Source of the DNA: Candidatus Latescibacterota bacterium
GTDB taxonomy: Bacteria > Latescibacterota > UBA2968 > UBA8231
Reading direction: 5' to 3'
Length of the DNA: 64,000 bases
Assembly (NCBI GenBank): GCA_964291625.2
Contig: OZ220089.1
Location: forward strand, 3,392,001-3,456,000
This document shows positions 2,769-35,485 of this stretch, in pieces; the stretch's first letter is position 1; every line of letters begins with the position of its first letter. Made by a program: the position numbers and the translations under genes. Under the pieces are notes generated by a model, which was given only the letters and a program-made list of their open reading frames with translations, did no database searches and was not told where the DNA came from.

Positions 2769-2793
2769 TGCGAGAATCAGAAAGGAGCCGCGT

Positions 2794-7341: not shown

Positions 7342-7949
7342 CGTTCGATTCTCCTTGTTGCTTCCCCCCGCGACTCCCGGCAGGGATGAAGGTGGCGAAC
7401 GGGCGCTCGCGCCAACCAGGGCAGGAAACCGCGAACGGTTCTCTGGAAAACGATACTCCAAGGCCCGCCTCGGGGCAAGCAGAAAGAGGCCGCCCGGCCA
7501 TCGGCGAGACCGGCCGCGAAGAGTGTGCTCCGGGTTGCGGATTTCCCTCCGCAGGCCCTCCCGGGGATTGTCCGAAACCCGTGTCTCCCGGGCGGCCGCC
7601 AGGCGGCGGCCCGGGAGGTGAATCAGGGCCCAATCCCCGGAAGGCTGTCCCCGGACGGTTTGAGCGGCACGACCTGCCCCGCGGAGCGCATTGCCAGAGG
7701 CAGACCGCTCCCTGTTAATTCCCAGGCCGTAGAGCGGACGGGGGAGCCTCCGGCACGTAGGGATGCCCGCGCCCCCGGATCGCAGCAGCACCCCCCTCCT
7801 GGCGTGTCCTGATCTACTCCGGAGGACTTCCTCCTGCGCCCGAACCGTGCCGAGGTGAAGAGCTCGACCGCCTCCCCACCGAGCCCCGGCGGCTGTACGG
7901 CCGCCCTGGCGCGGAATCCCCGCGTGGGGCGCTGCACGGCAGGCCCCCG

Positions 7950-9911
7950 ATGACGGCGCCACCGCAGAGGGACCGCGGGCAGACGCGGGACCCTCGGGGG
8001 ATCCCGGTGCGGGGCCTCCTCATCGGGGCCGTGCTGTCCCTGGTGCTCAACGTCTGCGACACCTACGCGACGAACGCCATCCAGGGGTCGTACCTGACCC
8101 TCAACTTCAGCACCCCCGCCGCGCTCTTCTTCTTCTTCTTCCTCGTCCTGGCCAGCGGCGCCGTCGGCCTCCTGCACCGGTGGCTGGAGCTGAGTCGGTC
8201 CGAGCTGATCACGATCTACGTCATGCTGCTGGTGGCCTGCTGCATCCCCGGCATGGGCTTCACCCAGTTCATCATCCCCTGCCTCCTCGGGTCGACGTAC
8301 TACGCCACGCCGGAGAACAACTGGGAGGAGCTCTACAACCAGTACATCCCCGAGTGGATGATCCCCCGCGGGGAAGGCGTGGCCCGCTACTTCTTCGAGG
8401 GGCTGCCCGAGGGCGGCTCGATCCCGTGGGGCGCCTGGGTGGTGCCCCTGGGCCTGTGGTTCGGCTTCTTCCTGGCTCTCGGCTTCGCCATGATCTGCGC
8501 CATGGTCATCCTGCGCCGGCAGTGGGTCGACAACGAGCGGCTCACCTACGCGCTGGTGCAGGTGCCGATGGAGATGATCCAGGGGGAGGAAGGCGGCGCC
8601 GTGGGCCGCTCGTTCTTCACCAACAAGACGATGTGGCTGGGCTTCGCCGTCTCCTTCCTGCTGCTGAGCGTCATCGGCCTGAACACCTACTTTCCGGAGT
8701 TCCCCCGCTTCGAGCGCACCGTGGGCCTGCCCCTGTTCGGCAACACCGGGCTCAGCTTCTGGTTCAGCCCGCCGTGGACGGGGTTCTTCTACTTCGTCAG
8801 CCTCGACATCTCGGCCTCGATCTGGGTCTTCTACCTCCTCGTCCGGCTGCAGCGGGGCGTCTTCAACGTCCTCGGCGTGCACAGCACGCAGCGGATCGAC
8901 TTCTACTCCGAGGACCCCTTCCTCGCCCACCAGGGCCTCGGGGCGATGATCGTCTTCGTCCTCGTCGGTCTGTGGGTGGCGCGGCGGCACCTGCGCCAGG
9001 TGGTGGCCAAGGCCGTCCGCGGTTCGCGGGATGTCGACGACAGCGGCGAGATCCTCACCTACCGGCAGGCCTTCTTCGGGTTGATCGCCGGCCTTCTGAT
9101 CGTCGCCGTCTGGCTGTCGGCGATCGGCCTTCCCTTCGCGGTGGCCCTGCTCTTCGTCTTCGGCGCCATGGTCCTGTTCATGGCCCTGACGCGGGTCGTG
9201 GCCGAGGGCGGCATCCCGGCCATGCGTCCCCCCCTGATGACCTCGACCTTCGTGATCTCCACGGTGGGCACCTCGGCCATCGGCGCCCAGGGCCTGGTGG
9301 CCCTCGGCTTCTCCTACGGCTGGCACTCCGAGATCCGCTCCTTCGTCATGTCCTCGGTCGCCAACGGCCTCAAGATGAGCGAGATGATCCGCGGACCGAA
9401 GCGCCGCCTGTTCTGGGCCATCGTCATCGCCATCCTCGTCAGTCTGGCGGGTTCCTCCTATATCACGCTGGTCATGGCCTACGAGCACGGCGGCATCAAC
9501 CTCAACCCCCTGTTCTTCTCATGGCAGTCGACCCACTTCGGGCCCATGGACATGACGCCGCGCATCGCCGGCGCGCCCGAAGGCCCGCGCTGGGACGCCG
9601 TGCAGTTCATGCTCATCGGGGGAGGGGTGATGTCGGCGCTCATGTGGGCTCGCCACCAGTTCGTGTGGTGGCCGCTGAACCCCCTCGGGTTCACGATCGC
9701 CGCCAACTGGAAGACGGGCCACATCTTCTGCAGCGCCCTGATCGCCTGGTGCCTGAAGTACCTGATCCTGCGCTACGGCGGCGTGCGCCTCTACCGCAGC
9801 CTGCGGCCCTTCTTCCTGGGCCTGATCCTGGGCGAGATCGTCGGCGCCGGGGTGTTCCTGGTGATCGACTACCTCACCGGCACCACGGGCAGCTTCCTCA
9901 CGCAGATCTGA
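7950..9911 (+). CDS. DUF6785/DUF6784-like polytopic membrane protein (putative transporter), copy 1
   Basis: 653 aa, many TM helices; LRRQWVDNERLTYALVQVP, RVVAEGG, WWPLNPLGF, LRYGG..LY...RPFFLGLILGE motifs. Confidence 0.8.
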   Translation: MTAPPQRDRGQTRDPRGIPVRGLLIGAVLSLVLNVCDTYATNAIQGSYLTLNFSTPAALFFFFFLVLASGAVGLLHRWLELSRSELITIYVMLLVACCIPGMGFTQFIIPCLLGSTYYATPENNWEELYNQYIPEWMIPRGEGVARYFFEGLPEGGSIPWGAWVVPLGLWFGFFLALGFAMICAMVILRRQWVDNERLTYALVQVPMEMIQGEEGGAVGRSFFTNKTMWLGFAVSFLLLSVIGLNTYFPEFPRFERTVGLPLFGNTGLSFWFSPPWTGFFYFVSLDISASIWVFYLLVRLQRGVFNVLGVHSTQRIDFYSEDPFLAHQGLGAMIVFVLVGLWVARRHLRQVVAKAVRGSRDVDDSGEILTYRQAFFGLIAGLLIVAVWLSAIGLPFAVALLFVFGAMVLFMALTRVVAEGGIPAMRPPLMTSTFVISTVGTSAIGAQGLVALGFSYGWHSEIRSFVMSSVANGLKMSEMIRGPKRRLFWAIVIAILVSLAGSSYITLVMAYEHGGINLNPLFFSWQSTHFGPMDMTPRIAGAPEGPRWDAVQFMLIGGGVMSALMWARHQFVWWPLNPLGFTIAANWKTGHIFCSALIAWCLKYLILRYGGVRLYRSLRPFFLGLILGEIVGAGVFLVIDYLTGTTGSFLTQI

Positions 9912-10011
9912 AGGGCCGGCCAGCGCAGGACGAGCGGGCTTGTTGCCCGGGGGGACAGGGAGGATTTCGTTAGCGCCGGCGCAGAGCCCCGAACACGGAA
10001 AGGGAACCGGA

Positions 10012-11469
10012 ATGGCCAAGAGGAAAGCGAAGGCGAAGGCGGTACCGAAGAGGAGGGCGGCAGCCGGCACAGCCCCGGCCGGCGTCATCGAGCTGGGCGG
10101 CAGGCGCGAGTTGTTCGTCGACGACTACCTGATCGAGCGGCTCTCCAACGTCGAGCTGCGCCTGCAGAAGCCGGTGCCGCGGAACGTGGCCCTCGACCAC
10201 GATGTGCCGTGGGAGGGCAACACCAGCGCCTACCACACGGTCTTCCAGGACGGCCGCCTGTTCCGCGCCTACTACCGGGGCTCTCACTACGACCCGGGCG
10301 GCTACAAACCGGTCGTGTGCTACGCCGAGAGCCGCGACGGCATCGAGTGGTACCGGCCGGAGCTGGGCCTGGTGAGCTACAAGGGCTCGACGCGCAACAA
10401 CATCATCTGGGACGGCCCCGGCTCGCTCGACTTCACGCCCTTCCGCGACACCAATCCGGACTGCCGCGAGGGAGAGGAGTACAAGGCCCTGGGCAGCCCG
10501 AGCGCGCGCAACCATGAAGAGCAGGCGCTCCTCGCCTTCAAATCGCCGGACGGCGTGCACTGGAGCCTGCTGTCGGAAGAGCCGGTGATGGATCACACGG
10601 CGGGCACCAATGTATTCGACTCGCAGAACCTGGCCTTCTACGAGCCTCGCCGCGGCTGCTACGTCGAGTACCACCGCGACTCCATCTACCCCGGCGGCGT
10701 GCGCTACCGCCAGATCATGACCTGCACCTCCACCGACTTCCGGAGCTGGACGAAGCCGCAGTTGCTCGACTATGGAGACGCACCCCTCGAGCACCTCTAC
10801 ACCAACGCCGTGACGCCCTACTACCGGGCCCCGCACATCTACATGGGCTTCCCCAAGCGTTTCATGCCGGACCGCCGCATGCCCGGCAACACGGTCGCCG
10901 GCGTATCGGACGGCCTGTACATGACCAGCCGCGACGGCCTCCACTTCAAGCGCTGGGGAGAGGCCTTCGTGCCGCCCGGGCCGCAGCGCAGGCGTTGGGG
11001 GAGCCGCAACAACATGACGGCCTGGGGTATTCTGGAGACGGCCAGCGACCTTCCCACGGCGCCCAGGGAGCTGTCGATCTTCAGCGGCGAGGGATTCTTC
11101 GGCGGCGAGGCCACCCGGCTGCGGCGCTACACCCTGCGCCTGGACGGCTTCGTCTCGGCCAACGCGCCGCTGAAGGGGGGCGAGCTGATCACCCGGCCCT
11201 TCACCTTCGAGGGTGGGGCCCTGAGTCTGAACGCGGCCACGTCCGCCGCCGGCTCGGTGCGCGTCGAGCTCCAGGACGGCGACGGCAAGACGCTGAAGGG
11301 GTACGCCCTCCGCGACTGCGACGAGATCTACGGCGACTACCTGGACCACAAGGTCACCTGGAAGGGCCTGGCCGACGTCAGCGGCCTGGCGGGGCAACCG
11401 GTGCGCCTGCGCTTCGCCCTCAGCGACGCCGACCTGTACAGCCTGCAGTTCACGCCCCGGCCCGTCTGA
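10012..11469 (+). CDS. Five-bladed beta-propeller glycosidase-like protein
   Basis: RRELFVDDYLIE, YAESRDGIEW.RPELG, SPDGVHW, FDSQNLAF, SRDGLHF, LRLDGFVS. Confidence 0.8.
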   Translation: MAKRKAKAKAVPKRRAAAGTAPAGVIELGGRRELFVDDYLIERLSNVELRLQKPVPRNVALDHDVPWEGNTSAYHTVFQDGRLFRAYYRGSHYDPGGYKPVVCYAESRDGIEWYRPELGLVSYKGSTRNNIIWDGPGSLDFTPFRDTNPDCREGEEYKALGSPSARNHEEQALLAFKSPDGVHWSLLSEEPVMDHTAGTNVFDSQNLAFYEPRRGCYVEYHRDSIYPGGVRYRQIMTCTSTDFRSWTKPQLLDYGDAPLEHLYTNAVTPYYRAPHIYMGFPKRFMPDRRMPGNTVAGVSDGLYMTSRDGLHFKRWGEAFVPPGPQRRRWGSRNNMTAWGILETASDLPTAPRELSIFSGEGFFGGEATRLRRYTLRLDGFVSANAPLKGGELITRPFTFEGGALSLNAATSAAGSVRVELQDGDGKTLKGYALRDCDEIYGDYLDHKVTWKGLADVSGLAGQPVRLRFALSDADLYSLQFTPRPV

Positions 11470-11588
11470 GATCCGATGCATCCACGCGGCGGCCTGCGGA
11501 TCTTCTGCGACGACGCCATGCTGCTTGACGCCTCCCGAAGGGGCTAGCTACCGTAACGGCGGTTTCCGTCCGTGGAGGAGGCGAATCC

Positions 11589-13538
11589 ATGCGCTCCTGC
11601 CTGCTCTCCTGCCTCGTCGCCGGCCTGCTCGCCCACGGCGCCTCGGGTGCAACCCTCATCCGGATCGGCCAGCCCCATACCGCGGCCGAGCGGGACAGCC
11701 TCGACCGGTTGGGCGTCGAGGTTCTCCACGTCCCCTGGCTGTCGGCGCACGTGCAGGACCAGATCGACCAGGACTCCCTGCAAGCCGATATGCTGGTGCC
11801 GAAGTTCCTCCCCGACGACGAGGATCTCGCCGCCGGACTGCTGGACCGGGGCGGCCGGGTCTGGGTCGACCACAACATCGGGGTAGGCGGCGAGAACACC
11901 CTCGTCGGGCAGGTGCTCATCGATCAGGACCCCACCACCGAATACGTGTGGGCCGAGATCGAGGCGGACCGGTTCGGGTTGAGGGGCTGGTGGGGCAAGG
12001 TCACCTTCGATCTCGGCGGACGGTTCCTGATCAAGGAGGTGCGGTTCCGGCCCGTCGAGGGCCGCACCGACCACTACCTGGATACCTTCGCCCTCGGTGT
12101 CAGCGACCTGGTCTTCAACACCTACCGGATCCCGTGGTTCAACCGCGAGCGGTGCGGGCCTCCCTGCGGCGAGCGCGAGGTGGCCTCCGTCAAGGAGAAC
12201 TCCGAGCACGACATGCGCATCGTGCTGGACCCGCCGGTGACGACCGAGGCGATCCAGCTCCTCGTCACACGCACCTCGCCGAGGGAGCTCGGACTGGCCG
12301 ACTTCGAGGTCTACGGCGGCGGCTACGTGACCGAGGCCGCGTACGAGTCGGAGGTCGTGGAGCTGCCGGACATCGCGAGCTGGGGGGAGATCCGCTGGTC
12401 GGGCCGTCAGGATCCACGCGCCCGCGTCCAGATCCGTTCGCGTCTGGGCAGCGACCGCCACCCGGAGATCTACTGGGAGTACCGTCCCGACCTGCTCGAC
12501 AGGGTCGAGTACCTCGACGGCGGAGGCGAGCTCAGCGTGACGGAGTACAAGGCGCAGTACGACAAGCTCGCGGGCCACTTCAAGCCCCAGGACGAGGAGG
12601 ACCGGGTGAGCTCCGACATCCAGAACTGGAGCTTCTGGTCCCGCATCTACTCCTTCGATGAGCCCGGGGTCGAGATCGTCTCTTCCGGTCCCCGCCAGTA
12701 CTTCCAGGTCCGCGTCGACTTCTCCTCGAGCACGGTGGAGGACGGCGGCCGCATCGACTACATCGAGGCCATGGCGTCGAAACCGATGGCGCGCGAGCTG
12801 GTGGCCGAGATCTTCCCGGTGACGACCCGGGTCGGCGAGGTGACGCGGTTCACCTACTACGTGAAGCCCACGATCCGCGGCGGCGACGGCGGCTTCGACG
12901 GACTGGAGATCTCGACGCCCTTCACCGTCGTCTCGGTCGACTCGCTGCGCATCGACGCGGTGGACGAGCCCTTGACCTGGACCCGCACCGAGGAGGGCTT
13001 CGAGGTCCTTCTGCCGCGGCGGCTGGGGACGACGGACAGCGGGGCCCTCCTCGAGGTCGTCTTCACGGCCCCGGTCCTGCGCGAGGTGAGCACTCCTTTC
13101 GCCGGCCGCGTCTTCGACACCGAGAGGCCCCTGGAGGTGCGCCAGCAGGTCAGTCCCGGCGACGCCATCGCCGAAATCGACAGCGATCAGCTCACCGTGC
13201 AGGCCCCCCTGAGCGCCTCGCTCCTGTTCTCGCCGCGCTTCGAGCCGAATCCGTTCACGCCCAATGGCGACGGGGTCAACGATGTCGTGCACATCTCCTA
13301 CAAGCTGCTGCGCCTGACCGCCGCCGTCCCCCTCTCGATCATGATCCACGATCTCTCGGGCCGCCTCGTGAAGCGGCTCTACTCGGGAGACGATTCCCTG
13401 GGCGAGTACGACCGTCCGTGGGATGGCCGGGACGAGGCGAACCAGCTCGTTCCCCCCGGCCTGTACCTCTGCCGGATCGAGGCCGACGCGGGGTCGAAGC
13501 GGGAGACGAGCATCGGCCTCGTCTCCGTAGCCTACTGA
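11589..13538 (+). CDS. Secreted protein with C-terminal FlgD-Ig / CHU_C-like domain, paralog A
   Basis: GGAGGAGG RBS, signal peptide, WSFWS, PNPFTPNGDGVND...HDLSGRLVKRL...WDG...PPGLY...VSVAY*. Confidence 0.8.
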   Translation: MRSCLLSCLVAGLLAHGASGATLIRIGQPHTAAERDSLDRLGVEVLHVPWLSAHVQDQIDQDSLQADMLVPKFLPDDEDLAAGLLDRGGRVWVDHNIGVGGENTLVGQVLIDQDPTTEYVWAEIEADRFGLRGWWGKVTFDLGGRFLIKEVRFRPVEGRTDHYLDTFALGVSDLVFNTYRIPWFNRERCGPPCGEREVASVKENSEHDMRIVLDPPVTTEAIQLLVTRTSPRELGLADFEVYGGGYVTEAAYESEVVELPDIASWGEIRWSGRQDPRARVQIRSRLGSDRHPEIYWEYRPDLLDRVEYLDGGGELSVTEYKAQYDKLAGHFKPQDEEDRVSSDIQNWSFWSRIYSFDEPGVEIVSSGPRQYFQVRVDFSSSTVEDGGRIDYIEAMASKPMARELVAEIFPVTTRVGEVTRFTYYVKPTIRGGDGGFDGLEISTPFTVVSVDSLRIDAVDEPLTWTRTEEGFEVLLPRRLGTTDSGALLEVVFTAPVLREVSTPFAGRVFDTERPLEVRQQVSPGDAIAEIDSDQLTVQAPLSASLLFSPRFEPNPFTPNGDGVNDVVHISYKLLRLTAAVPLSIMIHDLSGRLVKRLYSGDDSLGEYDRPWDGRDEANQLVPPGLYLCRIEADAGSKRETSIGLVSVAY

Positions 13539-13539
13539 C

Positions 13540-16221
13540 ATGAGCGCGCCCCGAGTGCCGCCGCGTGTCCCGCGTCCGCCTTCGGTCCTGGCGGCGGTCC
13601 TGGTCCTGGCATTCTCCACGCCCGGAGGGGGACAGCAGGGCTACAGCCGCGAAGCGAACCGCGTGGTCATCGACACGCCCACCCAGTGGCAGGAGTGGCA
13701 GTCGGCCACGGCGGAGATCAGCGAATCCGGCGTGCGCCCCGGCTACATCCGCCGGAGCACCCGCCTGGAGGTCGACGGCGAGACGGTCGTCGTGCCCGGC
13801 GTCAACGCCTCCCTCGACGCGGCCGCCTTCGGCGGCGGTGTGAGGGCCGCGGGCTCGGGCGCGGCGAGCGCCGGCGCGCTGATGGACGGCCGCCTGGACA
13901 CCTGGTGGGAGCCGGACCCGGACGATCCCGTGCGCGACTGGTGGGTGCAGCTCGACCTGGGCCGGACCGTGTCGGCCACCCGGATCGTCCTCAAGTTCGT
14001 CGACGCGGATCTGGGCGATCCCTTCCTCCACTTCAAGGTCACCACCTCCCAGGGGGAGCTCAATCTCGGCCTGCCGATCTACCGGACGCGCTACACGACC
14101 AACACGCCGGTGAAGGGCCAGCGGGTCTTCGAGATCGACCTGCGGACGCAGTCGCCGACGAAGTGGCCCGTCGTGTACGGCGACTTCACGGGGGACGTGA
14201 TCAACCTCGTCGGCATCCAGGCCACCGACAGCGACTTCGGCAAGGCCCGCCAGGTCTCCGAGGCCGTCTGGGAGAGCCTGCCGCCCGACCAGCAGGGGGA
14301 CGTGGAGTACTACCGGCTCGACGCCCGCGGCCGGGAGCGGCTCCTGGGCGGCAAGGAGGACTGGGACTCCCTGGAGGGCACCGGCCGCCAGGGGCCGGTG
14401 GTCCACTACCGCCGCGAGCGTCCCCGGCTGGCCGAGGTCGAGGTGTGGTCCATCGGCGACAACATCGGCACCGGGGTGCTGGAGCGGGGGGGGACTCTGA
14501 CCAGCGTCGACGACACCGGGGCCGAGCCCGCCGTCGTGGACGGACACTTCTTCGGCGAGCAGGCCCACTGGAGCGCCCTCGGCGGCTTCAACCCCGACCA
14601 GGCCTCGGTATTCCAGTCGCAGGACCTGGAGCGCCAGCTCCTCATCGATCTGGGGGGCGCCTTCTTTCTCGACCACATCCGGGTCCTGCAGCGGAACCAG
14701 GGGTTCGGCCATGTCCTCGGCTTCCCCCAGTACCGGATCGAGCTCTCCGACGGCTCGCGGGTCGCCGGCGGCAGCCTCGCGTGGAAGACGGTGGGGTCGG
14801 CGGGCAATCTCGACAACAGCCACGAACCGACGAGCCAGACGTACAACGGCTTCGATTTCCCCCTCACCAAGGCGAAGTACTTCGCCTTCACCTACCCCCT
14901 CTTCGCCAAGCCGGCCGACTCGGGCACGCTCTCCTTCGGCCTGTCGGAGATCCAGTTCTTCGGGGAGGGCTACATGCCCGAGGTGGAGATCACCTCCGTC
15001 TTCGACGGGGATCTCCCCTTCATCGAGCTCGGCAGCCGCGCCCGGAACCTGACCACCGTCGAGTGGGACGCCGACCTGCCGCCGGGGACCGGACTCGTGC
15101 TGCAGACGCGCACCGGCGACACCGTCCTGGAGTCGACCCACTACCTGAAGAAGAGCGGCGAGCCGTACCCGGGGACCCTGGAGGAGGCGAAGAACAAGTG
15201 GGAGGAGGACAAGAAGTTCTTCGGCGACGCCGCCGTCGGGCCCATCGTCACCGAGAAGCTCCCCGGTCCCGACTGGAGCGGCTGGAGCCAGCCCTACGAG
15301 CGGTCCGGCGACCGGATCACCTCGCCCAGCCCGCGGCGCTACGTCGCCATCCGCGCCATCCTCCTCACCGATGAGCCTCGCGCGGCCCCCACCCTGCGCT
15401 CGGTGGCGCTGAACTTCGCGCGCCCCGTGGCCAGGAGCCTGGTGGCCGAGGTCCTGCCCGCCCGCCTGGAGGAGATCGGCAGCCGGCAGGCGTTCTCCTA
15501 CATCCTGCGCTCGACCTTCGAGGGCGACAGCCGGGGCTTCGACGAGATCCTCCTCGAGGGCCCTCCGGGGCTGGAGATGGACCTCGACCGGGTGGTCGTC
15601 GAGGCCGGCGAGGAGCCGGCCCTCGCCTGGGAGGCCGCCGACGAGCGGCTCGAGGTGCTGAGGGACGGCTCCGACTCCCTGTGGGTCCGCCTGCCGGCGC
15701 CGGTCGAGGCCGGAGCCGGGGAGGCGCGGGTGGAGCTGCACTTCGAGTGCGTCCCCTACACCTACAACAGCTACTTCATCGGTTCCGTCGGGCACTCGGG
15801 CTTCGCCGGTTCCTGGCAGGGGGTCGAGGACGGCGACGCCAACGGCGTCACCGACAGCGAGACGACGATCGTCCTGGCCCTGCAGCGCGGCGACGTGCTG
15901 GGAGCGGTGGAGATCTCCAGCCCGGTGGTCACCCCCAACGGCGACGGCGCCAACGACGAGCTGGGGGCCCGCTTCACCCTGATGCGCATCAGCGCGCCGG
16001 CGCCGGCCGCGGTGGAGGTCTACGACCTGGGCGGCCGGCTGGTGAAGAGGCTGTGGGACGGGCCCCTCGCGGCGGGAGGCCACAGCGTCGCCTGGTCGGG
16101 CGTCGACGCCTCCGGGGCCTTCGTGCCGCCGGGGATCTACCTGTTGCGGATCGCCGTCGATCTCGACTCCGGTTCCGGCGGCAGCACCCGGGCCCACCGG
16201 CTCGTGCATGTCGCCTACTGA
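13540..16221 (+). CDS. Secreted protein with discoidin-like and FlgD-Ig / CHU_C-like domains, paralog B
   Basis: MDGRLDTWW...WWVQLDLG (F5/8-like), WSGWS, VTPNGDGAND...YDLGGRLVKRL...PPGIY...VHVAY*. Confidence 0.8.
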   Translation: MSAPRVPPRVPRPPSVLAAVLVLAFSTPGGGQQGYSREANRVVIDTPTQWQEWQSATAEISESGVRPGYIRRSTRLEVDGETVVVPGVNASLDAAAFGGGVRAAGSGAASAGALMDGRLDTWWEPDPDDPVRDWWVQLDLGRTVSATRIVLKFVDADLGDPFLHFKVTTSQGELNLGLPIYRTRYTTNTPVKGQRVFEIDLRTQSPTKWPVVYGDFTGDVINLVGIQATDSDFGKARQVSEAVWESLPPDQQGDVEYYRLDARGRERLLGGKEDWDSLEGTGRQGPVVHYRRERPRLAEVEVWSIGDNIGTGVLERGGTLTSVDDTGAEPAVVDGHFFGEQAHWSALGGFNPDQASVFQSQDLERQLLIDLGGAFFLDHIRVLQRNQGFGHVLGFPQYRIELSDGSRVAGGSLAWKTVGSAGNLDNSHEPTSQTYNGFDFPLTKAKYFAFTYPLFAKPADSGTLSFGLSEIQFFGEGYMPEVEITSVFDGDLPFIELGSRARNLTTVEWDADLPPGTGLVLQTRTGDTVLESTHYLKKSGEPYPGTLEEAKNKWEEDKKFFGDAAVGPIVTEKLPGPDWSGWSQPYERSGDRITSPSPRRYVAIRAILLTDEPRAAPTLRSVALNFARPVARSLVAEVLPARLEEIGSRQAFSYILRSTFEGDSRGFDEILLEGPPGLEMDLDRVVVEAGEEPALAWEAADERLEVLRDGSDSLWVRLPAPVEAGAGEARVELHFECVPYTYNSYFIGSVGHSGFAGSWQGVEDGDANGVTDSETTIVLALQRGDVLGAVEISSPVVTPNGDGANDELGARFTLMRISAPAPAAVEVYDLGGRLVKRLWDGPLAAGGHSVAWSGVDASGAFVPPGIYLLRIAVDLDSGSGGSTRAHRLVHVAY

Positions 16222-17953: not shown

Positions 17954-17969
17954 AGGGGGAATCGCAAGG

Positions 17970-20675: not shown

Positions 20676-20697
20676 GCAAACAGGAAAGGAGGGTAGA

Positions 20698-22365
20698 ATG
20701 GAGATCGGCCGGGGTCGTCCCCGGGTGGCGGGGCCTCTGTGCGTTCTGGGGGCGGCGGCCATCCTGTGGAGCGGCTGTGCGCGGGAAGAGCGCGGGGTGG
20801 TGGCGGTGGTGGGAGACAAGGCGATCACCGCCCAGGACGTGCGGGACCTCGGGGCCCGCCTGGCCGGGGAGTCGGGCGAGGCCGCTTCGCCGGACCGGGT
20901 GATGGAGCACCTGCAGGCCCTCGTCGACAGGGAGCTGCTGCTGCTGGAGGCGGAGAAGGAGCGCATCGAGGAGAGCCCCTTCTACGTGCGCCGCATGGGA
21001 CGCCTGCGGCGGGACAAGCTCGTGGGCACCCTCGAGGCCCGCACTCTCGCCGTCACCGTCGGCGACGACGAGGTGGGCCGCTACATCCGGGAACAGGGTT
21101 ACGACCGCGCCATCCAGACGGCGGACATCATGGTCCCGGACCTGGAAACGGCGGAGCACGTCCTGGAGCTGATCGAGCAGGGGGCCGACTTCGCCGACGC
21201 CGCCCGCAGGTGGTCGGCCAACCGGGAGACCGCTCCCCAGGGAGGGGACATGGGCCGGTTCGTGACTCGGCACCAGATGGTCCCGGCTCTCGGCGAGAAG
21301 CTCTTCACCCTGCCCGTGGGGGCGATCTCGCCTCCGGTTCAGGTAGGCCGGTGGCATTCGATCTTCAAGGTCCTGGCCGAGTCCTCCATCGAGCTGACGC
21401 CGCAGCAGCGGCAGGCGGTGACGGCGGAACTGGAGCGCCGGAAGCTGCAGGCGGCGAGGGACTCCCTGGTGGCCGTCCTGCGGCGGGAGTACCGCCTGGA
21501 GCGGGATGCAGAAGGCCTGGCCGCCTTCGTCGAAGCCCTGGGCGGCGGCGACGAGCCCGCCCCCGACCTGGTACTCTACCGCTACGACGGCGGCGAGATC
21601 GAGGCCGCCGAGGTCGTCGAGAAGGCCCGGAGCATCCGGGGCGACATCCTGGCTGACGTCGTCGACGCCGGGGGACTGACGGCCGTCGTCGATCGCTGGG
21701 TCGTGCCCGAGGTGGTGCTGGTGGAGGCCGCCCGGCGCGAGGGGATCGACGCCGAGGAGGAGATCGTCCGGTGGCTGGCGGAGATGGAGCAGCAGACGCT
21801 GATCACCGGACTCCGGGGACAGGTCCTGCAGCAGCGGGCCAACGTCACCGACGACGAGGTGCGCGAGTACTTCGAGGCCAACCGCGGCGAGTTCCTGCAC
21901 CCGGAGCAGATCGAGCTGGAGGAGATCCTGGTGGAGTCCGAGTCCGAGGCGGCGGAGCTGCGGCGCCGGATCGAGGCGGGCGCCGACTTCGGGGCCCTGG
22001 CGCGGTCGCGCTCGCTGCGCTCGCCGGAGATCCGCGACGAGAGCGGGCGGTTCCACATGCACCGGTACGAGTCGCCGAGGTTCGGCGGTCTCGTGGAAGC
22101 CGTTGTCGACGCCGAGGCCGGCGAGTTGACCGGACCGGTGGAAGTGGAGGAGGGCTTCACCCTCTTCCGCATCCTGTCGCGGGAGCGGCGCCAGGAGACC
22201 TGGGAGGAAGCCAGGGCGCGGGCCACCTCCAAGCTGCGGCGCCAGCGGCAGCGCCAGGCCTTCAACGACTACATGCGGGAACTGCGGGAACGCTACGACT
22301 CGCAGGTCGAGATCCGCCGCGGCGCCCTCGAGGCGGCCTTCGGGGCGGCCCCTCAGTCGGGCTGA
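20698..22365 (+). CDS. Parvulin-type peptidyl-prolyl isomerase (SurA/PrsA-like), probable lipoprotein
   Basis: LWSGC lipobox-like; two rotamase domains (GADFADAARRWS...GGDMG; GADFGALARSRS); AAAGGAGG RBS. Confidence 0.85.
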   Translation: MEIGRGRPRVAGPLCVLGAAAILWSGCAREERGVVAVVGDKAITAQDVRDLGARLAGESGEAASPDRVMEHLQALVDRELLLLEAEKERIEESPFYVRRMGRLRRDKLVGTLEARTLAVTVGDDEVGRYIREQGYDRAIQTADIMVPDLETAEHVLELIEQGADFADAARRWSANRETAPQGGDMGRFVTRHQMVPALGEKLFTLPVGAISPPVQVGRWHSIFKVLAESSIELTPQQRQAVTAELERRKLQAARDSLVAVLRREYRLERDAEGLAAFVEALGGGDEPAPDLVLYRYDGGEIEAAEVVEKARSIRGDILADVVDAGGLTAVVDRWVVPEVVLVEAARREGIDAEEEIVRWLAEMEQQTLITGLRGQVLQQRANVTDDEVREYFEANRGEFLHPEQIELEEILVESESEAAELRRRIEAGADFGALARSRSLRSPEIRDESGRFHMHRYESPRFGGLVEAVVDAEAGELTGPVEVEEGFTLFRILSRERRQETWEEARARATSKLRRQRQRQAFNDYMRELRERYDSQVEIRRGALEAAFGAAPQSG

Positions 22366-24056
22366 GCGCCGCTGCCCTCGCGGACCACGAGGACCTGGTT
22401 CGCCTCCAGGCCGTGCCAGGTCTCGACGAGCCCGTTGGGCCAGGTGACGCGCACCTCGTCGACGCCGGCGGCCTCGCCGAGGCCGAAGTGCAGGCGAGGG
22501 TCGCTGCTCGACAGGTAGCTCGACCCGCTGGCCACCTCCCGAACCTGGATCCGCTCCCCGCAGCGGACTCCCACCCGGGCGCCGACGCCGTCCCGGTTGC
22601 TCGCCGTGCCGACGGTGCGCACCTGCAGCCAGTTGGCCCGGTTGCCGCCGTCGTTGCGCAGCAGCGTCGGCGCCTCGTTCAGGTTGAGGACGAGGATGTC
22701 CACGTCGCCGTCGTCGTCGTAGTCGCCGAAGGCGGCTCCCCGGCTCACCTTCTCGATCCGAAGGCCGGGTCCGGCGGCCAGGGAGACCTCGTTGAAGGTG
22801 CCGTCGCCCAGGCTCTCGAAGAGCTGGTTCCGCTGGGCATAGGCCACCCCCAGGTTGGCCCTGTCCACCTGGGGGAAGATGTGGCCGTTGGCGACGAAGA
22901 GATCCTGGTCGCCGTCGTTGTCGTAGTCGAAGAACCCGGTCCCCCACGCCAGGAAGGGGAAGCTCTCGAGGCCGACCCGCGCCGCGAAGGTGACGTCCGA
23001 GAAGACCTCGCCGCCGCCGTCGTTGCGGTAGAGGGTGTTGGTCTCCTCCCAGAAGTTGGTCACCAGGATGTCGGCGTCCTCGTCGTTGTCGTAGTCGCCC
23101 AGGGCGATGCCCATCGACCCCTGGGCCTCCCCGGACTCGCCGTAGGCGACACCCGCCATCCAGCCCAGCTCCTCGAAGGTGCCGTCGCCCTGGTTCCGGT
23201 AGAGGTAGTTGGGGCCCGTGTCGTTGGCCACGTACAGGTCGGCATGGCCGTCGTCGTCGAGGTCGCCGGCGACGACGCCGAGCCCGTAGAGCCGTTCCTC
23301 GTCGACCACGTTGGCCGCCGCGGTGGCATCGGTGAAGAGGCCGTCCCCCTCGTTGCGGTAGAAGACGTCCGGCTCGCCCCGCAGCCCCCGCGGCCCGAAG
23401 TGGACGGTCAGGCCGCGCCAGGTGTGGCGCCGCTCCGGCGTCGTCGCCAGGAAGTGGCGGAAGTCGACGTAGTTGGCCACGTAGAGGTCGAGATCCCCGT
23501 CGCGGTCGGAGTCGAAGAAGGCGCAGCCGGTGCCGAAGCCCTCGTCGCCGACGCCGGCGCGGGCCGTGACGTCGGCGAAGCCCCCGCCCTCGTTCCGGTA
23601 GAGGACGTTGCGGCCGTAGTTGGTGATGTAGATGTCCGGATCGCCGTCGTTGTCGTGGTCGGCGACGGCGACGCCCATCCCCCAGCCCGGGTCCCCGAGA
23701 CCGGCGGCTTCGGTGGCGTCGGCGAAGGCGGCCCGGTCGTTGCGGTAGAGGGCGTTGCGCGGGCCCCCGCCGTCGGGGAACCCGCCGATGCGCGAGCCGT
23801 TGAGGACGTAGAGGTCGAGATCGCCGTCGCTGTCGTGGTCGACGAAGGCGACGCCGCCCATCATCGTGTCGACGAGGTACTCCTGCTCCTCCTCGCCGGA
23901 GACGTTGAGGAGGGTGACGCCCACGTCGGCGGCCACATCCGTGAACTGCACGGGGGCCGCCGCGGTCTCGGCGGCGGTCGCGGCAGCCCCGGGCCCTAGG
24001 GCCGGCAGCAGCACCAGGGGCAGGAAGGTCCTCCGGAGGGACCCGCAGCCGCTCAC
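22353..24056 (-). CDS. CRTAC1 family protein (FG-GAP/VCBS repeats plus ASPIC/UnbV)
   Basis: Repeated DxDxDGDxDLY motifs; NRDGVGARV...GSSYLSSSDPRLHFGLG...VTWPNG. Confidence 0.9.
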   Translation of the reverse strand: MSGCGSLRRTFLPLVLLPALGPGAAATAAETAAAPVQFTDVAADVGVTLLNVSGEEEQEYLVDTMMGGVAFVDHDSDGDLDLYVLNGSRIGGFPDGGGPRNALYRNDRAAFADATEAAGLGDPGWGMGVAVADHDNDGDPDIYITNYGRNVLYRNEGGGFADVTARAGVGDEGFGTGCAFFDSDRDGDLDLYVANYVDFRHFLATTPERRHTWRGLTVHFGPRGLRGEPDVFYRNEGDGLFTDATAAANVVDEERLYGLGVVAGDLDDDGHADLYVANDTGPNYLYRNQGDGTFEELGWMAGVAYGESGEAQGSMGIALGDYDNDEDADILVTNFWEETNTLYRNDGGGEVFSDVTFAARVGLESFPFLAWGTGFFDYDNDGDQDLFVANGHIFPQVDRANLGVAYAQRNQLFESLGDGTFNEVSLAAGPGLRIEKVSRGAAFGDYDDDGDVDILVLNLNEAPTLLRNDGGNRANWLQVRTVGTASNRDGVGARVGVRCGERIQVREVASGSSYLSSSDPRLHFGLGEAAGVDEVRVTWPNGLVETWHGLEANQVLVVREGSGAQPD

Positions 24057-25576
24057 GGACTGCGCTCGGCCAGTCTCCTGGCGATGGCGAGCTGCCTGCG
24101 GGCGTCCTCGTAGCGGCCCACCTTCCTGTAGGTCTCCCCGAGGTCGCGGTGATAGCGGGCGTTCGTCGGCTCCAGGGCGATGGCGAGCTTGTGCTCGTGG
24201 ATCGCCTGCAGGTGCCGGCCCCGCCGGGAGTACTGCACGGCCAGCTCGGCGTGGAACTTCGGGTTGTCCGGAGACATGGAGACGCTGCGCTCGAGATCGT
24301 CGAGGCTCTCCCGGCTCTGCTCGCGGAAGACGGCCATCGCCTGCCGGCTCTCCTCGCGCCGGCCTTGTTGCATCAAGGCCCTGGCCAGACCGTAGTGGGC
24401 CTCCGTGTTGTAGGGGTCGAGGTCGATGGCCCTGCGGAACTCCGGGATCGCCAGACCGTGGCTGTCGGCGCGGGCATGGGCGGCGCCCAGGGCGTAGCGG
24501 AAGAGGGAGCTCTCCGGCTCGAGCCGGACCGCCTGCCGCAGCTGGGCGATGCCCTCCTCGTGCCGCGCCTCCCGGGAGTAGATGCCGCCCAGACGAAAGC
24601 GTGTGTACGCCAGGTCCGGGTCGACGGCCAGGGCCCGCTCGTACTGGGCCGCCGCCTGGCCGTACTCCCGCTGCCGCTCGTAGGCCATGCCGAGGCTGTG
24701 CTGAAAGCCGCCGTGGCCGGGGGCCAGCTCGGCCGCCCTGCGATGGGCCGCGACGGAGGCGGCGAGCAGGTCCTGGTCCGCCATCGCCGTCCCCAGCGGG
24801 GCGTGGGCCTGCTCGGCGTAGACCCGGCCCAGCTGGTGGTGGACGGCGGCCCTCCGCGGGTCGAGGCGGAGGCTCGCCTGCAGGGCCTCCGCCGCCTCCG
24901 ACAGCTTCCCCACGGCCATCCGCGCCGTGGCGAGGAGGTAGTGCACGGAGGGCTCCTCGGGAATCAGCCCGGCCGCCCTCTGCAGGGCGGCGATCGCCTT
25001 TCCGTACTCCTGCTCTTCCAGGTAGATGCCGCCGAGGCGGTAGAGGGAGGGGGGGTAGTTCGGGTTGATGCGGTGGGCGGTCTCGAAGTGGCGCAACGCC
25101 GCCGCGCGGTCGCCGCGCGCGTGGATCATGCCGAGGCCGTGATGGGCGAGGTAGTAGCCCGGGTCGGCGGCGATCGCCTTCCGGAAGGCCTCCTCGGCCC
25201 GGGCCGGGTCCTGACGGATCAGGAACAGCTTGCCGAGCTTGTAGAGGGACGGGACGTGACCGGCATCGAGGCTCAGGGCCCGCTCCAGGGCCCGCCGGGC
25301 CTCGGGGAAGCGGCGCTGCAGGGAGTAGACGAAGCCGAGGCCGTCGAGGGCCCGGACATGGGTGGAGTCCAGCGCCACGGCCTTCCGGTAGCTCACCTCG
25401 GCGCAGGCGTAGTCGCCGCCGCCGGCGCAGCGCCGGCCGTGCTGGTAGAGGGACTCGGCGCTGCCCGGCTCCGGCGCCTCCTGGGCCGCGAGGCGGGGCG
25501 TCGCCCCGGCGAGGACGGCGGCGCAGGCGTAGACGGCCGCGTGCCGCGGGCGGAACAGGCGCAGGCCGGGGTTCAC
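24053..25576 (-). CDS. Tetratricopeptide repeat protein, exported
   Basis: About a dozen TPR units (e.g. AHYGLARAL, YRLGGIY, A..LDP); signal-like N-terminus from GTG 25576; overlaps the CRTAC1 gene start. Confidence 0.85.
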   Translation of the reverse strand: MNPGLRLFRPRHAAVYACAAVLAGATPRLAAQEAPEPGSAESLYQHGRRCAGGGDYACAEVSYRKAVALDSTHVRALDGLGFVYSLQRRFPEARRALERALSLDAGHVPSLYKLGKLFLIRQDPARAEEAFRKAIAADPGYYLAHHGLGMIHARGDRAAALRHFETAHRINPNYPPSLYRLGGIYLEEQEYGKAIAALQRAAGLIPEEPSVHYLLATARMAVGKLSEAAEALQASLRLDPRRAAVHHQLGRVYAEQAHAPLGTAMADQDLLAASVAAHRRAAELAPGHGGFQHSLGMAYERQREYGQAAAQYERALAVDPDLAYTRFRLGGIYSREARHEEGIAQLRQAVRLEPESSLFRYALGAAHARADSHGLAIPEFRRAIDLDPYNTEAHYGLARALMQQGRREESRQAMAVFREQSRESLDDLERSVSMSPDNPKFHAELAVQYSRRGRHLQAIHEHKLAIALEPTNARYHRDLGETYRKVGRYEDARRQLAIARRLAERSP

Positions 25577-25904
25577 GCCGCCCGCACCGGCACCCGGTGG
25601 ATGATGCGGCCCGGGCAGCCCTCGAGGGTCCTCCCGGCGGACCAGCCTCCGGGCCGGCATCGCCGACTTCGATTCGTCTTGCACCAGGCTCCTTGGGACG
25701 GTGGTGTGTAGTGTACGGGCACGGTTACCATATGGGCCGAGCCGGACTCTCGGGGTCCGGTAAGGCACAGGGCATGGCATCTCTCGGGGCAGCGGCCCTG
25801 CACCATCTTCGCGGAATCTACGATAAGGAAGCCGGCCCTCACGAGCTTGTCCCTGTGACCGAAGACCGGCCGGGCGGAGTCCCGTTGAGGACCATGGATA
25901 CCCG

Positions 25905-27869
25905 ATGACGTCACCTCCGCGGAGGGACCGTGGGCAGGCGCGGGACCTTCGGGGGGTCCCGGTGCGGGGTCTCCTCATCGGGGCCGTGCTGTCCCTGGTG
26001 CTCAACGTCTGCGACACCTACGCGACGAACGCGATCCAGGGGTCGTACCTGACCCTCAACTTCAGCACCCCCGCCGCCCTCTTCTTCTTCTTCTTCCTCG
26101 TCCTGGCCAGCGGCGCCGTCGGCCTCCTGCACCGGTGGCTGGAGCTGACCCGGGCCGAGCTGATCACGATCTACGTCATGCTGCTGGTGGCCTGCTGCAT
26201 TCCGGGCATGGGCTTCACCCAGTTCATCATCCCCTGCCTGCTCGGCTCGACGTACTACGCCACGCCGGAGAACAACTGGGACGAGCTCTACAACCAGTAC
26301 ATCCCCGAGTGGATGATCCCCCGGGGGCCGAACGTGGCCCGCTACTTCTTCGAGGGGCTGCCCGAGGGCGGCTCGATTCCGTGGGGCGCCTGGGTGGTGC
26401 CCCTGGGCCTGTGGTTCGGCTTCTTCCTGGCCCTCGGCTTTGCCATGATCTGCGCCATGGTCATCCTGCGCCGGCAGTGGGTCGACCACGAGCGGCTCAC
26501 CTACGCGCTGGTGCAGGTGCCGATGGAGATGATCCAGCGGGAGGAAGGCGGCGCCGTGGGCCGCGCCTTCTTCACCAACAAGACGATGTGGCTGGGCTTC
26601 GCCGTCTCCTTTCTGCTGCTGAGCGTCAACGGGCTCCACTCCTACTTTCCGGAGATCCCCCGCCTCGAGCGCATCGCCGTGCTGCCCGCCTTCGGCAACA
26701 CCTGGTTCCTCTTCTGGTTCAGCCCGCCGTGGACGGGGTTCTTCTACTTCGTCAGCCTCGACATCTCGGCCTCGATCTGGGTCTTCTACCTCCTCGTCCG
26801 GCTGCAGCGGGGGGTCCTGAACGTCCTCGGCGTGCACAGCACGCAGCGGATCGACTTCTACTCCGGGACGGACCCCATCCTCGCCCACCAGGGTCTCGGG
26901 GCGGTGATCGTCTTCGTCCTCGTCGGTCTGTGGGTGGCGCGCCGGCACCTGCGCCAGGTGGCGGCCAAGGCCCTGCGCGGGGCCCGCGAGGTCGACGACA
27001 GCAACGAGATCCTCACCTACCGGCAGGCTTTCTTCGGGTTGATCGCCGGCCTGCTGATCGTCGCCGCCTGGCTGTCGGCGATCGGCCTTCCCTTCGCGGT
27101 GGCCCTGCTCTTCGTCTTCGGCGCCATGGTCCTCTTCCTGGCTCTCACGCGGGTCGTGGCCGAGGGCGGCATCCCGGCGATGCGTCCCCCCCTGATGACC
27201 TCGACCTTCGTGATCTCCACGGTGGGCACCTCGGCCATCGGCGCCCAGGGCCTGGTGGCCCTCGGCTTCTCCTACGGCTGGCACTCCGAGATCCGCTCCT
27301 TCGTCATGTCCTCGGTCGCCAACGGCCTCAAGATGAGCGAGCTGATCCGCGGCCCGAAACGCCGCCTGTTCTGGGCCATCGTCGTCGCCATCCTCGTCAG
27401 CCTGGCGGGTTCCTCCTACGTCACCCTGGTCATGGCCTACGAGCACGGCGGCATCAACCTCAACCCCCTGTTCTTCTCATGGCAGTCGACCCACTTCGGA
27501 CCCAGGGACATGGCCCCGCGCATCGCGGGCGCGCCCGAAGGCCCGCGCTGGGACGCCGTGCAGTACATGCTCATCGGGGGAGGGGTGATGTCGGCCCTCA
27601 TGTGGGTGCGCCACCACTTCGTGTGGTGGCCGCTGAACCCCCTGGGGTTCACGATCGCCGCCAACTGGAAGACCGACCACATCTTCTGCAGCGCCCTGAT
27701 CGCCTGGTGCCTGAAGCTGCTGATCCTGCGCTACGGCGGGGTGCGCCTCTACCGCAGCCTGCGGCCCTTCTTCCTGGGCCTGATCCTCGGCGAGATCGTC
27801 GGCGCCGGCGTGTTCCTGGTGATCGACTACCTCACCGGCACCACGGGCAGCTTCCTGACACAGATCTGA
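25905..27869 (+). CDS. DUF6785/DUF6784-like polytopic membrane protein, copy 2
   Basis: About 47 differences from copy 1 over 654 aa (manual count). Confidence 0.8.
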   Translation: MTSPPRRDRGQARDLRGVPVRGLLIGAVLSLVLNVCDTYATNAIQGSYLTLNFSTPAALFFFFFLVLASGAVGLLHRWLELTRAELITIYVMLLVACCIPGMGFTQFIIPCLLGSTYYATPENNWDELYNQYIPEWMIPRGPNVARYFFEGLPEGGSIPWGAWVVPLGLWFGFFLALGFAMICAMVILRRQWVDHERLTYALVQVPMEMIQREEGGAVGRAFFTNKTMWLGFAVSFLLLSVNGLHSYFPEIPRLERIAVLPAFGNTWFLFWFSPPWTGFFYFVSLDISASIWVFYLLVRLQRGVLNVLGVHSTQRIDFYSGTDPILAHQGLGAVIVFVLVGLWVARRHLRQVAAKALRGAREVDDSNEILTYRQAFFGLIAGLLIVAAWLSAIGLPFAVALLFVFGAMVLFLALTRVVAEGGIPAMRPPLMTSTFVISTVGTSAIGAQGLVALGFSYGWHSEIRSFVMSSVANGLKMSELIRGPKRRLFWAIVVAILVSLAGSSYVTLVMAYEHGGINLNPLFFSWQSTHFGPRDMAPRIAGAPEGPRWDAVQYMLIGGGVMSALMWVRHHFVWWPLNPLGFTIAANWKTDHIFCSALIAWCLKLLILRYGGVRLYRSLRPFFLGLILGEIVGAGVFLVIDYLTGTTGSFLTQI

Positions 27870-28022
27870 AGGCGGGCGCCCGGGTCAGGACGGGTTCGCC
27901 GGCAAGGCAACGCCGGGCCGTCCGGGACTCGCTTGTGGCCGCCGGCGGGACGGGGTCCCGGGAGAGGAGGGTACTGGCGAAGGGGGCCGCACGCCGCCGG
28001 CGGGACGGGCGCGGGCCGGGGG

Positions 28023-30311: not shown

Positions 30312-30403
30312 GGCCGCCAAAGGTAGGGCGGGAAGAGGCGCGGCGGCCACCGGCGGTACGGCGGGGCTGGCGCCGAGCGGGAGCGGGGACGAGTCTTTGC
30401 GCC

Positions 30404-35251: not shown

Positions 35252-35485
35252 GGGGGGAGTCGGCAGATCCCGGGGCCGGGGAGCCCGGCGCCCGGGGCGA
35301 GGATACTCGACGCCCCCGCGGGCGGCAAGCCCGGAGAGGGTTGCGGCCGGCGCGGTCCACGGCGAACCGCGGCCGGCTCTTGAGCGGACCGGCCGCTGGA
35401 GGCCGGCTTCCCTTGTGCGCGGCGTCTCCGGGCCTCTCTCTTTCCGCTGCGCGGCGAACGCACCCCGACCCGAGGAGGGACAGCC

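Follow-up and report, generated by a model that had tools for sequence, protein, structure and literature searches.

To our knowledge, type IX secretion (T9SS) and the surface display that goes with it have been worked out almost entirely in Bacteroidota. Here we analysed a locus in a 64,000-nt stretch of DNA (referred to in its full length as the window) from a Candidatus Latescibacterota bacterium, namely positions 3,392,001 to 3,456,000 of the forward strand of contig OZ220089.1 (C1 below) in assembly GCA_964291625.2, a 5.9-Mb genome in 2 contigs that is 95% complete. The locus is centred on the gene of an exported 901-aa protein, here called X, and on three genes directly before it that encode the secreted proteins P1 to P3. 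The closest described systems are the pairs SprB-SprF and PG1035-PorP of Bacteroidota. According to the available portions of PMC9143113 and PMC12618676, type-B cargo of this kind binds and needs a genetically linked PorP/SprF-type outer-membrane barrel, and the available part of PMC12635249 describes twin cysteines in the C-terminal tail of SprF that bond to GldK.

The locus resembles these pairs in several respects. Its cargo ends in a CHU_C-type tail that bears the FxPNGDGxND motif and is encoded directly upstream of a dedicated gene for a predicted outer-membrane barrel, many such pairs occur per genome, and SprA and PorU are present together with a PorV-like match under the cut-off. There are also differences. 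X has about 900 aa and some 25 or more predicted strands, whereas PorP/SprF proteins have about 300 aa; no sequence or profile similarity between them was detected, and X lacks the C-tail cysteines. Unlike in Bacteroidota, GldL and GldM were not found (control genomes were silent as well) and GldK stayed under its cut-off. A peptidyl-prolyl isomerase (PPIase) and a CBM9-like protein are extra core genes, and in other phyla a PorP/PorV-like small barrel occurs alongside X.

A second comparable system is the SusC/SusD polysaccharide utilisation locus (PUL), or 'utilisome', of Bacteroidota. Multi-copy divergent cassettes, a barrel with surface proteins bearing carbohydrate-binding-type modules, and an inner-membrane transporter that is often nearby are common to both. 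However, the present module has no TonB-dependent receptor or Plug domain, no SusD and no secreted glycoside hydrolase in the locus; its predicted surface proteins are T9SS-tailed rather than lipoproteins, and its transporter appears to be of the OPT type. X also shares its predicted very large barrel with Deinococcus SlpA/SDBC, MtrB, LptD and FimD, but has none of their accessory domains. Term searches of the literature gave no description of the module and none of type IX secretion in Latescibacterota. The available portions of two Latescibacteria genome papers (PMC4454575 and PMC12993501) do not mention the module, and their supplementary tables may list the genes.

A conserved envelope module in eight genomic copies

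The locus is one of eight paralogous copies, within its own genome, of a conserved Latescibacterota envelope module. The core consists of the gene u, two to four P genes for lectin-like proteins, one or two X genes and a dedicated double-parvulin lipoprotein PPIase, called I. In the window the core genes are the following:

6439-7341, minus strand: u, a 300-aa secreted CBM9-like protein, a recurrent part of the core
11589-13538, plus strand: P1, a 649-aa secreted protein with a type-B-like T9SS C-terminal domain
13540-16221, plus strand: P2, an 893-aa secreted paralogue that combines an F5/8 type C (discoidin) domain with a type-B-like C-terminal domain
16208-17953, plus strand: P3, a 581-aa secreted paralogue directly upstream of X
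17970-20675, plus strand: X, an exported 901-aa protein whose family is undescribed and whose predicted structure is a large outer-membrane beta-barrel
20698-22365, plus strand: I, a SurA/PpiD/PrsA-like double-parvulin lipoprotein PPIase

The original prediction, made from the letters and a list of open reading frames (ORFs), had described ten genes between 7950 and 27869, a range that leaves u outside. All ten are present where it had placed them. The G+C content of the window is about 70% and raw ORF lists are crowded, and third-position G+C supports the frames that had been named. The tight packing proposed for the run 11589-22365 was also found, with 1 nt between P1 and P2, a 14-nt overlap of P2 and P3, 16 nt between P3 and X, and 22 nt between X and I.

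Conserved co-occurrence of these gene families in other genomes had been an expectation of the same prediction, and it proved to be strong in 73 related loci taken from species-representative genomes, several per genome. The list gives the number of loci holding each family, followed by the own-genome copies that lie near X, which here means within 12 kb of an X gene, a zone that covers 6.1% of the genome:

X: 73 of 73 loci
P: 73 of 73 loci; 28 of 29 copies near X
u: 66 of 73 loci; 6 of 8 copies near X
PPIase: 64 of 73 loci; 7 of 7 copies near X
Tetratricopeptide-repeat (TPR) protein: 44 of 73 loci; 4 of 5 copies near X
CRTAC1-like protein: 39 of 73 loci; 8 of 16 copies near X
DUF6785 protein: 33 of 73 loci; 9 of 27 copies near X
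Propeller-type protein G: 17 of 73 loci; 2 of 20 copies near X

These near-X counts set u, P, X and the PPIase apart as the core and mark the TPR, CRTAC1-like and DUF6785 genes as enriched accessories; the propeller gene just happens to lie nearby. In 72 of the 73 loci, fewer than 400 nt separate X from the end of a P gene upstream of it, and at least five recurring gene orders preserve the u-P-X-PPIase core. Of the 25 X-family genes in the genome, twelve are closely related to the window X (36-100% identity) and sit in the eight loci; the other 13 are distant (23-28%) and occur mostly in tandem runs of three. Across the phylum, X is present in 106 of 168 genomes and missing from 62, including whole families.

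A type-B tail class linked exclusively to X

P1 to P3 are paralogous and secreted, as had been predicted, with 29-34% mutual identity. They have a common layout of signal peptide, discoidin-like domain, second conserved domain, Ig-like region and tail. P1 scores 30.8 bits with both CHU_C and FlgD_ig (cut-off 27 each), carries the motif FTPNGDGVND and ends in ...VAY; the NCBIfam model TIGR04131 reaches only 21.2 bits on it (cut-off 35). P2 matches F5_F8_type_C at 35.9 bits and FlgD_ig at 34.4 bits, and its isolated tail matches CHU_C, which scores 16.9 bits, under the cut-off of 27, on the whole protein. For P3 the values are 28.1 bits (CHU_C) and 31.8 bits (FlgD_ig), with F5/8 type C sub-threshold. 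A sequence search of solved structures with P2 returned nothing beyond FlgD Ig domains for its tail.

The original assignment of these tails to the type-B class agrees with the profile matches. When isolated 130-aa tails were compared at E<=0.01, 16 of 16 cassette tails matched CHU_C (PF13585) and 0 of 16 matched Por_Secre_tail; their consensus is ...FTPNGDGxND...WDGRD...PPGxY...VAY. In total, 142 ORFs of the genome end in a FlgD_ig-like C-terminal domain. Twenty tails drawn at random from the 110 that are not near X gave the consensus ...NxPNPFN...LLR, and 13 of the 20 matched Por_Secre_tail, the type-A signal, while 8 of the 20 matched CHU_C. Of the 26 ORFs of the genome with the motif P[ND]GDGxN[DE], 25 have an X gene within 12 kb and one at 14.8 kb; of the 90 with the type-A motif NPFN/S, 4 have one within 12 kb. 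The type-B tail class is thus linked exclusively to X in this genome. With 26 type-B-motif ORFs to 25 X genes, this cargo class is tied one-to-one to a giant predicted barrel, and no PorP/SprF partner was found in the genome.

X as a predicted large outer-membrane barrel

X gave no match in Pfam or NCBIfam (E<=0.01) or, with the X profile, in the sequences of the Protein Data Bank (PDB). Its family is unnamed, is not covered by a Pfam model and lacks a relative of solved structure. At 90% clustering it numbers at least 967 homologues, all free of Pfam domains and named at most 'hypothetical'; a profile search of the whole library clustered at 50% identity gave at least 1178 representatives, of which 412 reach E<=1e-30. 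Homologues are 850-1050 aa long.

An AlphaFold2 (AF2) model of X built from 40 sequences (pLDDT 74, pTM 0.73) consists nearly entirely of long antiparallel strands, with an inserted domain at about residues 281-411. An acidic loop at about 530-625 is poorly modelled and highly conserved, with many invariant Asp and Asn residues, and the N-terminal segment at about 36-106 is conserved and unfolded in the model. All Foldseek and VIA matches listed for this model are transmembrane beta-barrels. The best is Deinococcus SlpA (7zgx_A; Z 14.9, rmsd 9.6, 434 residues aligned, 11% identity), followed at lower rank by MtrB, FimD/PapC, LptD and porins; such matches establish the fold class of the predicted structure and nothing further. 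The putative barrel of the original prediction is accordingly modelled as a large outer-membrane beta-barrel rather than as a soluble protein.

Neither a Plug nor a TonB_dep_Rec domain was found on X by Pfam, and TonB-dependent barrels are only generic fold matches (Z 8.6-9.9); about 20 true TonB-dependent receptors are encoded elsewhere in the genome. The only cysteine of X is residue 20, in the signal peptide, and mature X has none. Co-folding of X residues 100-901 with the P3 tail scored 0.00 in two runs without controls, a result that speaks neither for nor against binding.

The PPIase and the CBM9-like protein

The gene I was correctly foreseen as a double-parvulin lipoprotein. Rotamase, Rotamase_2 and Rotamase_3 match in two parvulin regions (residues 151-225 and 383-506), and all 6 copies examined, that of the window and five paralogues, have a cysteine where the signal ends. 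NCBIfam models of PrsA, PpiD and SurA match, all with scores far under their cut-offs; the best are 83.5 bits for PRK00059 (cut-off 303) and 30.2 bits for SurA (cut-off 394). Two parvulin domains and chaperone-like flanks are shared with SurA, PpiD and PrsA, but I is a lipoprotein whose seven genomic copies each lie beside X. The product of u begins with a signal-like sequence and has an Atlas feature score of 0.97 to clusters carrying CBM9_1; it has no Pfam or NCBIfam match, and a sequence search of solved structures returned nothing.

Secretion machinery of the genome

Among the T9SS genes named in the original prediction, sprA is present, with SprA matches summing to 607 bits in one 2117-aa frame, over the cut-off. 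PorU was found twice over its cut-off (572 and 537 bits). The evidence for porV is partial: a PorV-like gene adjoins one of the PorU genes and scores 114 bits, under the cut-off of 250. The PorP/SprF model PF11751 had no match in the genome, and the search itself works, since the same model finds 31 of the 168 genomes of the phylum.

As a separate observation, a sulfatase-modifying-enzyme-type gene with a sub-threshold GldK match (C1:1766330-1766791) lies inside a paralogous cassette at 1757-1786 kb.

The P-X pairing in other phyla

Starting from a distant X homologue with the label Ignavibacteria, we found 61 loci in Ignavibacteria, Kryptonia, Bacteroidota metagenome-assembled genomes and Zhuqueibacterota, and P stands beside X in 55 of them. 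The conserved order there is P (with F5/8 type C and CHU_C), a 305-aa small barrel, X, a TPR protein of about 1050 aa, ExbB, ExbD and DUF4159; the small barrel was counted in 57, the TPR gene in 56, ExbB in 45 and DUF4159 in 41 of the 61 loci. The small barrel (for example 7018-7932 of locus L165) scores 54 bits with the PorV/PorQ model and 34 bits over the full length with PorP/SprF, both under the NCBIfam cut-offs. Since the same pair is found in Ignavibacteria and Kryptonia loci, the P-X pairing is ancient, and the idea of a lineage-specific module had to be given up. That the pair is kept in Latescibacterota, Ignavibacteria and Kryptonia alike suggests an envelope machine that is both old and general.

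Homologues of the TPR-ExbB-ExbD-DUF4159 set also occur in the genome studied here, beside distant X triplets (for example C1:4435001-4446000 and C1:281001-292000), and a small-barrel homologue stands with TPR, ExbB, ExbD and DUF4159 next to a cassette at 293-306 kb. The genome has only two small-barrel homologues, neither of them in the window. Read from its sequence, the DUF4159 protein of L165 (region 14116-16679) has a TonB-like start, made up of a membrane anchor and a proline-rich stretch. The four genes may therefore be an undescribed motor-transducer set tied to X-type barrels, and with such motor genes at hand the module may have a role in energised transport. A literature term search on DUF4159 gave the Pfam paper only.

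Proposed surface display on X

We consider it about an even call that the module displays the P proteins at the cell surface on the X barrel. The P proteins, whose signal peptides are seen in their sequences, would cross the inner membrane by Sec. They could then pass the outer membrane through the cell's own T9SS, for which the SprA and PorU genes and the sub-cut-off PorV-like match are available and which their tail type suggests they use. The invariant gene pairing suggests that they stay at the surface attached to their cognate X barrel or next to it, and the lipoprotein PPIase, if it acts as SurA-type proteins do, would help to fold or insert the barrel or the cargo. The assembled complex might bind glycan-bearing ligands, as the discoidin and CBM9-like modules imply. 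The OPT-fold permeases and the TPR and CRTAC1-like accessories may carry small peptide-like products inward; a link of the module to uptake is plausible. If X does anchor the cargo, it would represent a second solution to the attachment of type-B cargo.

The distribution of PorP/SprF in the phylum is partly complementary to that of X across families:

Family f1: X in 75 of 75 genomes, PorP_SprF in 0 of 75
Family f10: X in 13 of 13, PorP_SprF in 0 of 13
Family f4: X in 0 of 31, PorP_SprF in 26 of 31
Family f3: X in 0 of 22, PorP_SprF in 1 of 22

Several points weigh against display on X. The comparison above offers few independent contrasts, related genomes not being independent; families f7, f9 and f12 hold both X and PorP_SprF, the matches in f4 are weak (20-28 bits), and f3 fits neither pattern. 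The near-X label does cluster on a tree built from the tails, with 3 changes where shuffled labels average 29, but this clustering is also expected from common descent of the P proteins alone. In the other phyla, 57 of 61 loci have the gene of the PorP/PorV-like small barrel placed between P and X. Because X accompanies such a barrel where one is present, its role is possibly other than, or additional to, anchoring, and the role of anchor or shuttle may belong to the small barrel. Of the sought porK/L/M/N set, GldL and GldM had no match, in control genomes as in this one, and GldK had only sub-threshold matches of the sulfatase-modifying-enzyme type. The original prediction had further compared X with the dedicated PorP/SprF-type barrel of Bacteroidota cargo, but no test run made X a relative of that family: it has no PF11751 or TIGR03519 match, is three times longer and lacks C-tail cysteines. 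Nor is X an enlarged PorP/PorV barrel, given an hhalign probability of 0.14% against the PorP/PorV-like small-barrel family. Surface location, binding and ligand of the complex are all predictions from the genes.

Accessory permeases, TPR and CRTAC1-like genes

The remaining genes of the locus are as follows:

7950-9911, plus strand: D1, a DUF6785+DUF6784 polytopic membrane protein with a predicted OPT/Yellow-Stripe-type fold (Pfam E 1.2e-129)
9940-11469, plus strand: G, 509 aa, of a large uncharacterised family, possibly a GH32-like propeller, with no Pfam family
22353-24056, minus strand: C, a secreted CRTAC1-like accessory protein with seven FG-GAP_3 repeats and UnbV_ASPIC (Pfam)
24053-25660, minus strand: T, an accessory TPR protein (Pfam TPR families) in an ORF that extends to 26017
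25905-27869, plus strand: D2, a recent duplicate of D1, with DUF6785+DUF6784 (Pfam E 3.5e-131)

The DUF6785/DUF6784 protein was modelled by AF2 from 21 sequences (pLDDT 83, pTM 0.87). Its sole strong structural match is barley YS1 (7wsr_A), which we take to be a member of the OPT superfamily, with Z 24.8 and rmsd 3.7 A over 545 of 600 residues; the next best match has Z 5.5. Foldseek agrees (E 2e-9, TM 0.64-0.71), and the Atlas feature lead is 'peptide transporter/OPT' with a score of 0.79. Thus DUF6785 proteins are predicted to have the OPT/Yellow-Stripe transporter fold. Although the match to OPT/YSL structures (barley YS1, PDB 7wsr and 7wst) spans the whole protein, identity is 12-14% and Pfam OPT does not match: in the genome at E<=1, the OPT model PF03169 gave two weak matches elsewhere and none on D1, D2 or their paralogues. 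DUF6785/DUF6784 would thereby gain a fold-level assignment to OPT/YSL transporters; a literature term search found no description of DUF6785. DUF6785 genes occur in at least three different cassette architectures. One weak OPT-model match (19 bits, model positions 529-622; C1:4236501-4236773) falls in an open frame of 903 aa and shortly precedes a DUF6785 paralogue at 4237157-4238953.

The twin DUF6785 genes had been read as a bracket around the locus. The twins are indeed near-identical (93% at the protein level), but the bracket is a recent and local duplication of the gene alone. The DNA repeat (7946-9932 and 25901-27892, 94.2% identity over 1994 nt) is confined to the ORF, and D2, kept in the 97% relative L035, is missing from the 84-87% relatives L018 and L037, in which the TPR gene is followed directly by unrelated downstream genes. 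D1 and D2 differ by 42 synonymous and 46 non-synonymous codons.

The convergent TPR-CRTAC1 pair was found as described: I and C converge with a 13-nt overlap, and T shares 4 nt with C. For the TPR gene, the Met at 25660 is a more probable start than 26017: it is followed by a signal-like hydrophobic stretch, and the ORF looks non-coding upstream of it. Within C, the FG-GAP repeats appear at 22683-23856 as a seven-copy family of 58-nt DNA repeats. Summed contig depth over this segment is very high in all four runs (up to 208), which most likely stems from paralogues and other organisms. A further CRTAC1-like paralogue, 41% identical to C, lies at 57578-59185 of the window (C1:3449578-3451185), far from any X gene.

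The glycosidase-like propeller assigned to G found less support. G has no Pfam, NCBIfam or PDB sequence match, its 7802 homologues are all unnamed or 'hypothetical', and the glycosidase link consists of PF00251 precomputed on 3 of the 120 homologues listed; a GH32-like propeller is possible. By eye there is no signal peptide, so G is probably cytoplasmic; its real start is possibly the Met at 10012.

Alternative readings

The best-surviving alternative is an uptake machine analogous to a PUL, a possible reading that we nevertheless regard as doubtful. X would be an import channel, P and u would capture the substrate or serve as lid, DUF6785 would transport it across the inner membrane, signal-less propeller enzymes would process it, and ExbB/ExbD encoded elsewhere might energise the import. 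The 25 X genes in many divergent paralogous cassettes of at least five architectures are in keeping with this, as are the F5/8 type C and CBM9-like modules, which are of the carbohydrate-binding type. The transporter fold of DUF6785 also fits, with 9 of 27 copies near X (compared with 6.1% of the genome) in three or more architectures, but 18 of the 27 copies are not near X and DUF6785 is missing from 40 of the 73 loci. Similarly, distant X paralogues and the Ignavibacteria and Kryptonia cassettes adjoin TPR, ExbB, ExbD and DUF4159, the last with the TonB-like start seen in L165, whereas the cassette of the window has no ExbB or ExbD. X lacks the Plug and TonB-dependent receptor domains of a known import barrel, the propeller family is unlinked to X (2 of 20 copies near), and the locus encodes no secreted hydrolase. 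The substrates known for the OPT family are peptides and metal chelates rather than glycans.

A wider proposal combines uptake with display. In it, X barrels and their T9SS-displayed lectin partners would be an unrecognised nutrient-capture and import machine of FCB phyla outside Bacteroidia, a counterpart of the SusCD utilisome that was ancestrally driven by ExbB/ExbD and a TonB-like DUF4159 protein instead of TonB, and that sponge-associated Latescibacterota expanded to a dozen or more substrate-specific cassettes feeding OPT-type permeases. As a whole this is rather unlikely to hold. If X does conduct substrates as well, it would explain feeding without SusCD in polymer-degrading, often host-associated bacteria.

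It seems quite unlikely that secretion and assembly are independent of the T9SS, with X as an usher- or two-partner-like pore for P and the PPIase as the periplasmic chaperone of P. FimD and PapC are among the fold matches of X (Foldseek E 4e-7 to 4e-6; VIA Z 9.3-9.8), and a chaperone-type gene directly follows X in the window, a PPIase being present in 64 of 73 loci. However, porins, LptD and BamA-type barrels are matched at least as well as the ushers, Pfam finds no usher plug or POTRA domain on X, and the P tails belong to the T9SS class in a genome with SprA, PorU and a sub-cut-off PorV-like match.

A role in general envelope biogenesis or as a coat, either as an LptD-SurA-like pair (lptD and surA are adjacent in E. 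coli) or as an SlpA-like barrel anchoring a surface layer with P as coat proteins, is very improbable: the best fold match is to Deinococcus SlpA (Z 14.9) and LptD is matched too, but 12 close and 13 distant X copies per genome are unlike a housekeeping role, neither LptD nor SLH family matches were found, and X is missing from 62 of the 168 genomes of the phylum, whole families included.

Neighbouring genes and occurrence in sponge samples

Contigs near-identical to the locus (350-660-nt pieces with 0-5 mismatches) were found in runs labelled as sponge metagenome, including one metatranscriptomic library, and indicate presence only. Contigs of two libraries filed as metatranscriptomic cover parts of G, P1, P2, P3, X and D2 at few mismatches; such contigs cannot show transcription, strand or operon structure, and carry-over of DNA is possible.

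The module is immediately preceded by the genes of two further propeller-type proteins without a signal (4080-5186 and 5216-6328, both on the minus strand), one of which is a paralogue of G while the other weakly matches a BT_1020-like beta-propeller family. The gene at 2749-3864 (plus strand) encodes an unrelated PKD-domain protein. Beyond 27.9 kb the neighbours are unrelated as well and comprise a sulfite-oxidase-type molybdopterin oxidoreductase (28026-29327, minus strand), a zinc alcohol dehydrogenase (29355-30350, minus strand), an epimerase, the selenocysteine elongation factor SelB (31903-34011, minus strand) and a sulfatase (35384-36961, plus strand).

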